From NCBI GenBank assembly GCA_022703645.1, contig JAKLDG010000001.1:338814-402813 (forward strand): 64,000 nt of DNA, written 5' to 3'. The notes under the pieces are model-generated. The model worked only from the letters and a program-made list of their open reading frames with translations. It had not been told where the DNA came from and made no database searches. The stretch comes from Patescibacteria group bacterium. GTDB taxonomy: Bacteria > Patescibacteriota > JACPGU01. Of the stretch, positions 5,307 to 31,626 are shown one piece after another (positions within the stretch are counted from its first letter, which is position 1; each line of letters starts with the position of its first letter). A program made the translations under genes and the position numbers.

Positions 5307-6152
5307 TTATTTTAGTCTGCCGATATCTTCTACTGCCTTTTTGAATAAATCTACTAAGTTTGGATAATCTAGGTGATTCAAAACCTCTCCTTCTTCCACC
5401 CATTTAATTTCTTTAATATGAGCTTCCGGATTAATTATAGTATTTACCTGAGTAGTTCGTATAAGATAGAAGTGCACGCTTTTTTTGATAACCTCTTCGC
5501 CGCTTTTATCAGTAAATTTAATTTCGCCAACTTCACCAAGAATTTCAGCCTCAGTTATACCTGTTTCTTCTTGAATTTCTCTTACAGCTGCTTCTTGCCA
5601 AGTTTCTCCTTCTTCAACTTTACCTTTTGGAAAAGTCCATTTATCATAAGGGTTTTTGACAATTATAAAAAAGTTTTTCCCATTTTCTACGCGGTATATT
5701 ATTCCACCAGCGCTAATTATCAAGTTTTCTTCTTCATACTTACTACTTGCGCGGTAAATTGTTCCCAATACACCATTAATGAACTTACCACTGTTTTCTC
5801 CGCCAAATTCCTTACCAAGCTCCACAGCCTCATTAATAACCGCTTTTGGAGGCACTTCTGCATCATAAATCAACTCATAAATACCAATTCGCAATATAGA
5901 GCGGTCAATAGTGGCAATCTGTTCAAGAGGCCATTCGGGAGCAGTCTTTTTGATTAAGTCATTGATCTCTGATATTTTTTCCACCGTTCCTTTTATAATC
6001 TTACGGCAAAATTCCTCATCAACCTTAAAACCGGAATTTTCAATATTCCGTTTTAAAATTTCAGCAATATCTCTTTCTTCATCAAAATCCCACTCGTAAA
6101 GAGATTGTAAAACAACCATTCTTGACTGATGTCTAATAGATAGGTGAGACAT
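5307..6152 (-). CDS. nusB: NusB antitermination factor fused to a C-terminal Nudix hydrolase domain
   Basis: N-terminal ~137 aa NusB-like (LQSLYEWDF...INGVLGTIYR); C-terminal Nudix box GKVEEGETWQEAAVREIQEETGI. Confidence 0.75.
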   Translation of the reverse strand: MSHLSIRHQSRMVVLQSLYEWDFDEERDIAEILKRNIENSGFKVDEEFCRKIIKGTVEKISEINDLIKKTAPEWPLEQIATIDRSILRIGIYELIYDAEVPPKAVINEAVELGKEFGGENSGKFINGVLGTIYRASSKYEEENLIISAGGIIYRVENGKNFFIIVKNPYDKWTFPKGKVEEGETWQEAAVREIQEETGITEAEILGEVGEIKFTDKSGEEVIKKSVHFYLIRTTQVNTIINPEAHIKEIKWVEEGEVLNHLDYPNLVDLFKKAVEDIGRLK

Positions 6153-6160
6153 TTTATTAA

Positions 6161-6373
6161 TTATTTAGTTTTTGTTTTTACTTTACCGCTAGCAATACCG
6201 GGTTTCTTCATTTGTCTGCCATTATAAGTACCGCAAACTTTACACACTTGGTGTGATATTTTTGGTGACTTACATTTTGAACAAATAGAAACGCCTGCTA
6301 ATTTTACTTTGATATTCTGCCCTCTGCGACTCGCAGTACGGGACTTACTCATACGTTTTTTGGGTTCTGCCAT
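6161..6373 (-). CDS. rpmF: 50S ribosomal protein L32
   Basis: MAEPKKRMSKSRTASRRGQ...CSKCKSPKISHQVCKVCGTY: basic N-terminus plus CxxC...CxxC zinc ribbon typical of bL32. Confidence 0.75.
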   Translation of the reverse strand: MAEPKKRMSKSRTASRRGQNIKVKLAGVSICSKCKSPKISHQVCKVCGTYNGRQMKKPGIASGKVKTKTK

Positions 6374-6509: not shown

Positions 6510-6545
6510 GTAAAAAAACCGCCTTTTGGGGCGGTTGGGGTTTTT
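6510..6545 (-). terminator. rho-independent terminator (AACCGCCCC-aaaa-GGCGGTT + T-run on minus strand)
   Basis: GC-rich stem with A-run/T-run flanks between transposase gene and rpmF. Confidence 0.55.
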
Positions 6546-6578: not shown

Positions 6579-7040
6579 CTAAGCTCTTTTTGCAATATTC
6601 TTAGGGTTATTCATATCCCGACCCCACGTTGATGGATTTGATTCTATATAAGAATAAATTTCATCGTAAGATTTTTCATTGCGGATAATGTGTTCATAAT
6701 AGTTGCGTTGCCAGATACGATTTTCAAATGGTATTAATATATTTTGTTTAACCCCATCAATGCATTTTTTCGTTGTTAGTGATTTAAAACGTTGAATTAT
6801 TTGCGGCAATGACAGTTGTTTTTCTGTAGGGGCAAACCCCCGTGTTTGCCCGTTTTTAATTGGGCGGACACAGGGGTCCGCCCCTACGATACAGATAATC
6901 AAATGTATATGATTTGGCATAACAGAAAATATATCTACCTCGATATTTGAATAATACTTTGGGATTTCTTCTATCGTTTGGAAAATTATTATCCCAATAT
7001 CATTCAATCTCATCCCTCCATCAACAATTTCTCCGAACAA
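6579..7040 (-). CDS. IS200/IS605-like tyrosine transposase with RAYT-like C-terminal motifs, N-terminally disrupted copy (nonsense at codon 2 of the full-length frame; TTG internal start)
   Basis: HxH motif (MPNHIHLI), C-terminal WQRNYYEHIIRNE...YIESNP resembling the RAYT tyrosine-helix motif; full frame extends to ATG ~7145 but codon 2 is TAA; paralog at 20626..21183. Confidence 0.6.
   Translation of the reverse strand: MFGEIVDGGMRLNDIGIIIFQTIEEIPKYYSNIEVDIFSVMPNHIHLIICIVGADPCVRPIKNGQTRGFAPTEKQLSLPQIIQRFKSLTTKKCIDGVKQNILIPFENRIWQRNYYEHIIRNEKSYDEIYSYIESNPSTWGRDMNNPKNIAKRA
6826..6887. repeat. REP-like doublet: GTAGGGG-[GGGCAAAC..GTTTGCCC]-spacer-[GGGCGGAC..GTCCGCCC]-CTAC, embedded in-frame in transposase ORF
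   Basis: two GC-rich 8-bp-stem hairpins bracketed by GTAGGGG/CCCCTAC inverted termini, ~60% GC in ~35% GC background; translated as ...VGADPCVRPIKNGQTRGFAP... Confidence 0.7.
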
Positions 7041-7160
7041 ACACCCTCTATCTTGTGTACATATTGTAATAAAATAATCTCCGGGTTCGGAATAATCATA
7101 ACCTTTTATTCGTATTGACCTTCTGTTTTTGTTTTCTTTTTACATTAGAACAATTGAGAA

Positions 7161-17231: not shown

Positions 17232-17270
17232 ATTAAAAGTGGCTTGACGTTTTGGCGTCAAGCCACCTAA
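17232..17270 (-). terminator. rho-independent terminator (GTGGCTTGACG-ttttgg-CGTCAAGCCAC)
   Basis: perfect 11-bp stem; T-rich run on minus strand. Confidence 0.7.
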
Positions 17271-20508: not shown

Positions 20509-20625
20509 AAATGCGGGGGATATTGCAGATTGTTATGGTGCAAAATAATACATTTATAATTATATCATAGATAACGCGATGTGTCAAGTACTTTTGTAGG
20601 TGTTGGCAATTATAAATTCATGGTA

Positions 20626-21183
20626 TTTTTCCTTAAAATATTCTTAGGATTATTGCTGTCTCGTTCCCACATTTGCGGATTGGATTCTATGTAACTATAA
20701 ATTTCATCGTACGATTTTTCATTGCGAATGATGTGTTCGTAATAGCCGCGTTGAAAAATGGGGTTGCCTGTTTTGTCTAAGATAATATTTATCTTTTTCG
20801 TTGATTGATATTTAAAATACCCAATTATTTGTCCTAATGTTGGTTTTTTATCCCGTAGGGGCGGGGTCTCCCCGCCCTGAATTAAATTGTTTTTGTTACC
20901 TACAAATATCGTTTTTCTCTTCTAATATCCGCAATATAAAATGAATATGATTTGGCATTATCTGAAAAATATCTAATTTTGTATTTGGGAAATGATTCGG
21001 AATTTCGTACCAACATTTTTCTGCAACATTTCCAATCTTATTTAATTCCATTTTCCCATCCACAATTTCCCCAAACAAACATTCTCTGTCTTTTGTGCAG
21101 ATCGTAACAAAATAATCTCCAGGTTCGGAATAATCATATTCTTTAATCCGTATCGATTTTCTATTTCGTTCGATTTTTGACAT
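20626..21183 (-). pseudogene. IS200/IS605-like tyrosine transposase with RAYT-like motifs, second copy, frameshifted: N-terminal part 20896..21183 intact, C-terminal part (~20626..20850) in +1 frame
   Basis: N-terminal 95 aa aligns with copy 1 upstream frame (..EPGDYFVTICTKDRECLFGEIVDG..HIHFIL); downstream DNA ~85% identical to copy 1 3' half encoding ...GYYEHIIRNEKSYDEIYSYIESNP; stop and REP hairpin intervene. Confidence 0.65.
20855..20877. repeat. REP-like single hairpin GGGGCGGGG-tct-CCCCGCCC preceded by GTAG, at the break point of the second transposase copy
   Basis: GC-rich palindrome with GTAGGGG terminus like other REP copies. Confidence 0.6.
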
Positions 21184-30685: not shown

Positions 30686-31450
30686 ATGAAGATTATTTCT
30701 TTCAATATTAACGGCATCAACTCGGCCATCAAATATGGTTTGCGGGATTTTATATCTCTAGAAAATGCCGATATCTACTTGTTCCAAGAAGTAAAAAATT
30801 CCTGGGATACTATTGATGACTCTTTGCGGAAAATTCCGGGTTACGAAACATATTTTTACCAAGCAGCAAAAAAAGGATATTCCGGACTTCTTGCATACGT
30901 GAAAACGAAGAACAAACCAATCGGATACAAGGAGGGTATAGGGTTTAGGGTTATAGACGAACAAGCGAGAGTGCAGACATTAGAATTCCAGGATTATTAT
31001 TTAGTTAATACCTATCTACCACATTCAGGAAGGGAACTTGAGAAACTTCCATTCAAACGTGAAGTAAACGAAAAATTCCTCGAATACTGTGAGTCTTTGA
31101 AAAAGAAAAAGCCACTTATAATTGCAGGGGATCTGAATGTTGCGCACAAAGATATTGATCTCGCCAATCCTCGCGCCAATATGGGAAACGCCGGATTTAC
31201 GACGGATGAGAGAGATTTTTTCGATAAATTCTTATCCCACGGATATATCGATACATTCCGCGAATTTGTAAAAGAAAATGGCCACTATACCTGGTGGAGC
31301 TGGCGGACAGGGGTACGCGAAAGAAATATCGGTTGGCGCATTGATTATTTTCTCGTCTCTGAAAATATTTCAAAACGAGTGAAAAAGAGTTGGATTCTGA
31401 AAGACATTCTCGGATCCGATCATTGCCCGATAGGATTAGAAATCCTGTAG
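30686..31450 (+). CDS. xthA: exodeoxyribonuclease III (AP endonuclease)
   Basis: MKIISFNINGI..., catalytic DLNVAHKDIDL, C-terminal SDHCPI; 254 aa. Confidence 0.85.
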   Translation: MKIISFNINGINSAIKYGLRDFISLENADIYLFQEVKNSWDTIDDSLRKIPGYETYFYQAAKKGYSGLLAYVKTKNKPIGYKEGIGFRVIDEQARVQTLEFQDYYLVNTYLPHSGRELEKLPFKREVNEKFLEYCESLKKKKPLIIAGDLNVAHKDIDLANPRANMGNAGFTTDERDFFDKFLSHGYIDTFREFVKENGHYTWWSWRTGVRERNIGWRIDYFLVSENISKRVKKSWILKDILGSDHCPIGLEIL

Positions 31451-31626
31451 GGGCGCAAAATTTTAAGCCCTTTTTTTGGGGCGTTATGTGTAGCATTCCT
31501 ACAAAACCGTTCTTTCTTTGGCTTTTATAACGTAAAATTAACCATGCGCTTTATATTGGACTTTTTTTAAATTTAGCATAGAATAGGAGATAAGAAAACA
31601 AAAAAGCAATAAATCAATAAATCAAA

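Follow-up and report, generated by a model that had tools for sequence, protein, structure and literature searches.

A RAYT-like transposase gene with a translated REP doublet and a stop at codon 2 in a Patescibacteria genome

A 64 000-nucleotide stretch of a Patescibacteria group bacterium (NCBI GenBank assembly GCA_022703645.1, contig JAKLDG010000001.1, positions 338,814 to 402,813 of the forward strand; hereafter the window) carries a gene for a tyrosine transposase, termed copy 1, in which a pair of repetitive extragenic palindromic (REP) hairpins is translated in frame and in which the second codon is a stop. The locus raises the question of which enzyme family the gene belongs to, whether the hairpin pair is a chance insertion or a regular part of the gene, and whether the gene can still give a functional product. 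In all likelihood copy 1 is a RAYT gene of TnpA_REP subclass 2.4 with the in-gene REP doublet typical of its family, inactivated by the TAA at codon 2, and a second copy in the window (copy 2) is independently dead.

Reading frame and family of copy 1

The features of copy 1 are listed below in window coordinates, in the order in which the gene is read.

7143..7145, minus strand, ancestral ATG start, positionally equivalent to the starts of the paralogues
6579..7145, minus strand, full RAYT/TnpA_REP-like frame of copy 1, 188 codons plus stop, with a PF01797 match and 27 invariant residues kept
7140..7142, minus strand, nonsense TAA at codon 2 (TCA in copy 2, CAA in paralogue P0044)
6579..7040, minus strand, residual TTG-initiated open reading frame (ORF) of 153 residues, beginning at family residue 34
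6903..6914, minus strand, HUH metal-binding motif NHIH at the end of strand beta3 (subclass 2.4 signature NH[IFV]H)
6862..6887, minus strand, left REP with GTAG foot, 8-bp stem and 6-nt loop, GTAGGGGCGGACCCCTGTGTCCGCCC, translated as VGADPCVRP
6852..6861, minus strand, AT-rich 10-nt spacer AATTAAAAAC between the REPs (from the sequence)
6826..6851, plus strand, right REP, inverted, GTAGGGGCAAACCCCCGTGTTTGCCC on the plus strand, read as GQTRGFAPT on the gene strand
6675..6713, minus strand, WQRNYYEHIIRNE, the WQ...EH...R motif, aligned with the part of E. coli TnpA_REP (4er8) that recognises GTAG
6633..6650, minus strand, YIESNP, the catalytic tyrosine motif (from translation and family alignment)
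6517..6536, minus strand, hairpin and T-run resembling a terminator, downstream of copy 1 (from a sequence scan)

Read on the minus strand, the frame is open after the TAA without a further stop until the TAG at 6581-6579. The conceptual 188-codon product (6579-7145) contains MPNHIH, WQRNYYEHIIRNE and YIESNP and ends 19 residues past the NP of the last motif. A preliminary description of the locus had proposed an ATG at about 7143-7145 followed by a TAA codon where copy 2 has TCA, and both were found as proposed (ATG at 7145-7143, TAA at 7142-7140). It had also placed the motifs HIH and YIESNP in the ORF 6579..7040, which translation confirmed, and had allowed only a TTG-initiated truncated product; among canonical starts this is correct, the TTG at 7040 being the earliest such in-frame codon past the TAA and opening the 153-residue ORF 6579..7040.

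A protein search with copy 1 returned more than 5598 relatives from many phyla, several of which are named ‘REP element-mobilizing transposase RayT’ in their sources. Copy 1 scored 28 bits against Pfam PF01797 (Y1_Tnp; cut-off 23) and 21.2 bits against the IS200 model NF033573 (cut-off 55); its best NCBIfam match was REP_Tyr_transpos (NF047646; E = 4e-16), with transpos_IS200 at E = 2.6e-4. When a profile of 33 relatives was searched against the PDB, the best match was 4er8, E. coli TnpA_REP (E = 2.6e-5; ISDra2 4e-3), with WQrnyyEHiiRn aligned against WQPRFWEHAIRN. The AlphaFold (AF2) model of copy 1 (pLDDT 84, pTM 0.79) matched exclusively Y1 HUH transposases, and among these structural matches 4er8 had the top query-normalised TM-score (0.56) and the lowest root-mean-square deviation (3.3 Å).

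TnpA_REP subclass 2.4 was described by Quentin, Siguier, Chandler & Fichant (2018, BMC Genomics 19:475, PMC6006769) and is identical with group 4 in the RAYT classification by Bertels, Gallie & Rainey (2017, GBE 9:2110, PMC5581495). Its description comprises the motifs NH[IFV]H, WQ and YIxNNP, a median length of 194 residues, the lack of a tail domain and, between strand beta3 and helix alphaC, an insertion of variable length that consists of REP sequence kept in frame; its REPs are either ‘long’, with three G–C pairs at the foot, or ‘double foot’ (GTAG...CTAC), and REPs lying in frame within the gene, between HuH and Y, are its unique and predominant feature (PMC6006769). Copy 1 has NHIH, WQ, 188 codons, no C-terminal extension and the variable insertion between strand beta3 and helix alphaC. 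The motifs of the IS200/IS605 transposases (subclass 1.1; DH[VI]H, W[TS] and Y[IV]ENQ) were not found in copy 1, and neither tnpB nor subterminal hairpins were found adjacent to it. Copy 1 belongs to the RAYT/TnpA_REP family and, by its sequence signatures, matches subclass 2.4, that is RAYT group 4. The original assignment as an IS200/IS605-like tyrosine transposase resembling RAYT, made by motif, has thereby been sharpened by Pfam, NCBIfam, profile and fold to a RAYT-like Y1 HUH nuclease gene.

The TAA at codon 2 is the sole lesion of copy 1: all 27 invariant family residues are kept, HxH and the catalytic Tyr included, and each of the possible ancestral codons (TCA as in copy 2 or CAA as in P0044) is one substitution from TAA. 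An assembly error at this codon was ruled out, since a megahit assembly made independently from a different sample (L001, ENA ERZ27257455) matches the window at 100% identity along 6462 bp, ATGTAA included. Reassignment of TAA was likewise ruled out: it is the main stop codon of the genome and closes 19 of the window's 31 longest reading frames. On the 867,473-bp contig of the NCBI metagenome-assembled genome (MAG), copy 1 is annotated only as the 153-residue product HRY60335.1. This TTG product would be without strand beta1 (residues 20–28 of the AlphaFold model) and without the invariant R..IR...YDY..G.Y..T.C block, and because both are missing it is most likely non-functional. Since everything except codon 2 is intact, the inactivation would be recent, and copy 1 is probably a young pseudogene.

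The in-gene REP doublet

The 62-bp inverted hairpin pair (6826-6887) directly follows the HxH motif, and its in-frame translation is VGADPCVRPIKNGQTRGFAPT. The right REP reads GGGCAAACACGGGGGTTTGCCCCTAC on the minus strand (6851-6826), again with a GTAG foot, an 8-bp stem and a 6-nt loop, and the two arms of the doublet are 81% complementary. Each arm occurs once in the window (0 expected by chance), and as single-stranded DNA the doublet is predicted to form one long hairpin (−23.9 kcal/mol, z = −5.7). Its GTAG-GGGC...GCCC stem, with three G–C pairs at the foot, is of the long REP type. In the AlphaFold model the REP-encoded residues 85–110 form a low-pLDDT coil. When the REP sequences were compared by eye, no consistent target motif was seen on the 5′ side of the GTAG foot, whether ATATT or a CT cleavage dinucleotide. 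A role of the REP as an intragenic terminator was considered and rejected: hairpin plus T-run occurs only on the antisense (plus) strand, on which no gene reads into the REP.

Homologues were surveyed at 80 loci from species-representative genomes, 79 of which were scanned for G+C-rich hairpins with GT[AG]G feet. In 60 of the 79, spread over many phyla, GTAG hairpins lie at the same position, right after MPNHxH. In an alignment of 33 members from many phyla, the REP-encoded segment has nearly invariant ends, V-G-A on the left and A-P-T on the right; the residues between them vary widely, as does the total length (0 to more than 70 residues). In a codon test, 41 genes were picked by the peptide VGA only, so that their codons were free to vary. 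Val was encoded by GTA and Gly by GGG in 40 of these 41 genes, 34 had a stem of 7 bp or more free of mismatches (mean of composition-matched shuffles 0.2), and the inner stems came in 21 different complementary versions, i.e. they covary. Because the GTA GGG codons are fixed and the stems covary, the constraint lies on the DNA (foot and stem) and not on the peptide. At 19 of the 32 loci having both an in-gene and an extragenic REP, an extragenic REP matched the in-gene one within two mismatches, compared with 2.1% of cross-genome pairs; in-gene REPs thus belong to each genome's own REP population.

Compared across these homologous sequences, the doublet of copy 1 is a feature shared by the family and not a private insertion. 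The preliminary description had correctly delimited the doublet (6826..6887) and its reading frame, and GTAG feet and further copies in the genome have since been found. Its further claim, that the downstream frame depends on a 62-bp insert, stands to the extent that a deletion would break the frame (62 mod 3 = 2), and falls to the extent that the element is no adventitious insert, being at the same position family-wide. The in-gene REP elements of copy 1 (62 nt) and of the paralogues P0112 (59 nt) and P0044 (29 nt) all have a length of 2 mod 3, a remainder that follows from the constant phase in which the feet are read (GTA GGG GC... / ...GCC CCT AC).

Paralogues, other REPs and neighbouring genes

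Four RAYT copies with mutual identities of 53–61% are present in the same genome, and all four have a REP or a remnant of one at the in-gene site. The features of copy 2 and the further REP doublets of the window are as follows.

20610..21183 (about), minus strand, copy 2, a RAYT pseudogene 58% identical to copy 1, with a 95-residue ORF (20896..21183) ended by a +1 frameshift stop
20904..20906, minus strand, TTT run of copy 2 just 5′ of the GTAGG foot; removal of one T gives a 184-residue ORF
20855..20877, plus strand, surviving REP of copy 2, GTAGGGGCGGGGTCTCCCCGCCC on the plus strand; its partner arm is GTAGG followed by AT-rich sequence
14563..14617, no strand assigned, REP doublet in the rlmD/rumA-like methyltransferase ORF 13604..14923 (minus strand), in frame and read as VGAGLAPAKKGQPQGLPLQ
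31447..31502, plus strand, decayed REP doublet GTAGGGGCGCAAAATTTTAAGCCC-T7-GGGGCGTTATGTGTAGCATTCCTAC, the TAG of its GTAG foot terminating the xth-like exonuclease III ORF 30686..31450

Copy 2 begins with ATG TCA, and its 95-residue ORF stops at a TAA created by a single extra T at the REP foot; with one T deleted, the 184-residue ORF reads ...DIVGNKNNLIQGGETPPLRDKKPTLGQIIGYFK... through this site. The T-run sequence is identical in five assemblies, and an assembly error was ruled out on the grounds that independent assemblies agree. Programmed +1 frameshifting at this site (AUU UGU AGG UAA) was also rejected, P-site re-pairing being implausible and the invariant Trp being Phe as well. Since the left hairpin is lost and the invariant Trp is Phe (FQRGYYEH), copy 2 is the older wreck of the two. 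It had previously been taken as an intact reference for copy 1, a role for which the extra T at the REP foot and the loss of the invariant Trp disqualify it. The comparison with intact RAYT paralogues elsewhere in the genome, recommended at the same time, could be made with two: P0044 (175 residues, on L002) and P0112 (191 residues, on L006), each with internal REPs.

The in-gene REP of P0044 is of the double-foot type, GTAGGGGCGGGTTTGAAACCCGCCCCTAC, read as IVGAGLKPAPT. REPs in or near RAYT homologues of two MAGs, one from Chloroflexi (L044) and one from Dehalococcoidia (L045), are identical to this element (L002:5277-5305) in one or the other orientation. In the stretch L002:4160-5528, P0044 lies 20 bp downstream of a co-oriented gene for a phage-integrase/XerC-type recombinase and adjoins a HaeIII-type restriction-modification pair. 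In P0112 (L006:5001-5576) Glu replaces the nearly invariant His of WQRNYYEH (FWQRNYYEEIIKNE); in E. coli TnpA_REP this position has been linked to the recognition of GTAG.

Further REP copies, the existence of which had been left to be checked, were found in the window (14563-14617, 20855-20877 and 31447-31502) and on L002 and L006. The sequence GTAGGGGC occurs six times in the window (0.57 expected). Both arms of the rlmD doublet are identical to those of the doublet in paralogue P0112 (L006:5298-5356), and the spacer alone differs. At the same codon position, close rlmD orthologues from the candidate phyla radiation (CPR) hold a different doublet (P0126), a single REP (P0124) or nothing (P0125 and P0129); it was the alignment of these close CPR orthologues that showed the REP to be an insertion, the PDB alignment of RlmD being uninformative on this point (variable linker). 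The empty orthologue sites read GTT GGA / CTG GGG ... CAA / GAG and are faintly foot-like. Outside the window, an in-frame REP doublet read as VGAGISPARIKGRPQGSPLR is present in mnmA (tRNA 2-thiouridylase; L006:533-590). Seven REP loci were seen in about 85 kb of the genome: four within RAYT genes, two in frame in RNA-modification genes and one at a gene end. Clustering of REPs within about 200 bp of the transposase genes, which had been suggested as a test, was not seen around the window copies; the REPs sit inside genes. The exact 24-nt REP arm GTAGGGGCRACCCTTGCGGTYGCC was found on at least 120 metagenome contigs with GC contents of 34–70%, and among the matches listed 114 had no RAYT homologue on the locus; given this wide variation in GC content, the same REP sequence is common to very different organisms. 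The REP scan also returned a perfect palindrome of the GTGG...CCAC double-foot-like kind at 17239-17266 of the window (GTGGCTTGACGTTTTGGCGTCAAGCCAC), with a stem unrelated to the GTAGGGGC family.

The neighbours of copy 1 are leuS (7161..10070) and rpmF (6161..6373), and all three genes are read from the minus strand. The 969-residue LeuRS product of 7161-10070 has a NUDIX match (PF00293) amid its synthetase domains, and the 281-residue protein of 5307-6152 (minus strand) is a NusB-NUDIX fusion (both from the Pfam list), which makes two Nudix fusions within 5 kb.

Weighing of explanations and comparison with known systems

TnpA_REP enzymes of groups 2 and 3 bind the folded single-stranded REP plus GTAG, cleave at a CT or CA dinucleotide close by via a 5′-phosphotyrosine and can rejoin strands (PMC8266576). 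By analogy, an enzyme of the copy 1 type would be a single-strand-DNA HUH/Tyr nuclease that binds a hairpin with a 5′ GTAG foot and cuts and rejoins adjacent to it, and we infer that group 4 enzymes act on these REPs as those of groups 2 and 3 do. Members of subclass 2.4 habitually keep substrate-type REPs in their own gene, translated as a loop between strand beta3, which carries the HUH motif, and helix alphaC. The doublet of copy 1 is held at the nucleotide level (GTAG foot and G–C stem base), and the encoded peptide, a low-confidence loop in the model, would be a tolerated surface loop; a translated REP tolerated as a peripheral loop was also the conclusion that Quentin et al. reached from their own model (PMC6006769). 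One substitution would then have turned codon 2 of copy 1 into TAA and inactivated the gene, and the intact P0044 and P0112 presumably supply any remaining activity on the small REP population of the genome.

Several observations weigh against this interpretation. The score of copy 1 against the equivalog model REP_Tyr_transpos (NF047646), 59.2 bits, is under the curated cut-off of 80, the model being assumed to be centred on other subclasses. The tyrosine motif YIESNP deviates from the consensus YIxNNP (S for N), as the sole deviating item of those listed for subclass 2.4, and the assignment to this subclass was made by the published signatures, as distinct from the authors' hidden Markov models. 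REPtrons usually have flanking REPs, and the GTAG-hairpin scan found none flanking copy 1 or copy 2 in the window. Published TnpA_REP biochemistry is confined to groups 2 and 3. Finally, the retention of 27 of 27 invariant residues in copy 1 also fits a gene that is still expressed via a non-canonical start.

Such a gene would be functional from a non-canonical start past the TAA (e.g. ATA after AGAAGG) or by readthrough of the TAA, with strand beta1 retained. Besides the single lesion and the complete set of invariant residues, including HxH and the catalytic Tyr, an AGAAGG purine run resembling a Shine–Dalgarno sequence stands ahead of two ATA codons, and copy 1 is probably transcribed, as it lies between leuS and a terminator. 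Readthrough would have to pass the commonest stop codon here, however, and an ATA-started product would still lose the invariant residues R6, I9 and R10; ATA start codons are very rare in bacteria, and the gene callers at two sources called just the 153-residue ORF. A functional copy 1 is therefore considered improbable. More improbable still is an IS200/IS605-like transposase gene into which a mobile REP doublet was recently and privately inserted, the frame being kept by chance. Doublets of the same population do lie in frame in unrelated genes (the rlmD-like ORF at 14563-14617 and mnmA on L006), and rlmD orthologues exist without the element, from which in-frame insertion is possible in this genome. 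The private event is contradicted by hairpins that occupy an identical codon position in 60 of 79 homologues from many phyla, with VGA and APT nearly invariant, and by a REP or remnant at this spot in all four paralogues, which are only 53–61% identical; the IS200 side of the proposal conflicts with the lack of the signatures DH[VI]H, W[TS] and Y[IV]ENQ, with the NF033573 score (21 against a cut-off of 55) and with the fact that neither a tnpB gene nor subterminal hairpins were seen beside copy 1.

The conservation could also be that of a protein motif, VGAxPxxxP...GQxxGxAPT, kept for structure or binding, with the palindromic DNA as a by-product. Three nearly invariant residues per side and a segment that is always in frame in intact genes would fit this, but synonymous positions are fixed as well (GTA GGG in 40 of 41), the variable residues change as complementary codon pairs (21 different stems), the length runs from 0 to more than 70 residues in what the model gives as a low-confidence coil, and the same sequences occur extragenically in the same genomes and in non-RAYT genes, so that this explanation has hardly any probability left. 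The preferred reading, a subclass 2.4 RAYT gene with its customary REP doublet and a stop at codon 2, accounts for the locus best. An extension of it, which is put forward tentatively and is on balance doubtful, would make the in-gene REP pair a fixed slot with one of two roles: a heritable home copy for the genome's REPs, or an operator that lets the enzyme sense its own gene or mRNA. Such a slot fits the position that is constant across phyla with a hairpin that turns over together with the local REPs (19/32 versus 2%), and it fits the identity of the P0112 and rlmD doublet arms and the different REPs held by the rlmD site in different species. If true, it would account for REPs and enzyme remaining linked across horizontal transfer.

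A palindrome translated within a transposase of this kind is a published hallmark of a RAYT subclass and is not to be flagged as a novel insertion or an assembly artefact. The locus documents a RAYT/REP system in a highly reduced Patescibacteria genome, with four divergent paralogues of which two are recently dead, each of these being one nucleotide away from an open frame. Codon invariance together with stem covariation gives quantitative support for a constraint on the DNA of the in-gene element. In-frame REP doublets in essential RNA-modification genes (rlmD and mnmA) of a streamlined genome, with REP turnover at a conserved site, give a workable starting point for learning how group 4 RAYTs mobilise or substitute REPs.

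In its comparison with known systems, copy 1 is closest to subclass 2.4, with which it and its paralogues share the length of about 190 residues with no C-terminal extension, the NH[IFV]H/WQ/YIxxNP motifs, the variable insertion between beta3 and alphaC, REPs of the long and double-foot types, the in-frame placement of REPs between the HuH and Tyr motifs, several distant paralogues per genome and an occurrence in many phyla. They differ from the published description, which places its emphasis on Cyanobacteria and Bacteroidetes among various phyla, in having a Patescibacteria host with a genome of about 0.87 Mb, and further in YIESNP for YIxNNP, in the lack of REPs flanking the window copies and in the inactivation of copy 1 at codon 2. 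The E. coli TnpA_REP/REPtron (4er8, RAYT group 2) has the same Y1 HUH fold, an aligned WQ...EH..R motif and REPs in which a hairpin follows a 5′ GTAG foot; its identity to copy 1 is 20%, however, its REPs have bulged stems, are extragenic and flank the gene as bacterial interspersed mosaic elements (BIMEs), and the E. coli gene is without a translated REP. With the IS200/IS605 TnpA proteins (IS608 and ISDra2), copy 1 has the fold and the HUH/Tyr chemistry in common, but the signatures differ and copy 1 is without left-end and right-end subterminal hairpins and without tnpB. Intragenic in-frame GTAG palindromes, often dimers that encode 20–30 residues, have been described in functional genes, where GTAG feet can donate TAG stop codons (Di Nocera et al., 2013, BMC Genomics 14:522, PMC3733652). 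The in-frame doublets in the rlmD-like ORF and in mnmA and the TAG stop at xth resemble these intragenic REPs and the Rickettsia palindromic elements (Di Nocera et al., 2013, PMC3733652; Ogata et al.). The RAYT repeat differs from both in that its host gene encodes the presumed mobilising enzyme and its position is conserved family-wide, whereas there the insertions are sporadic.

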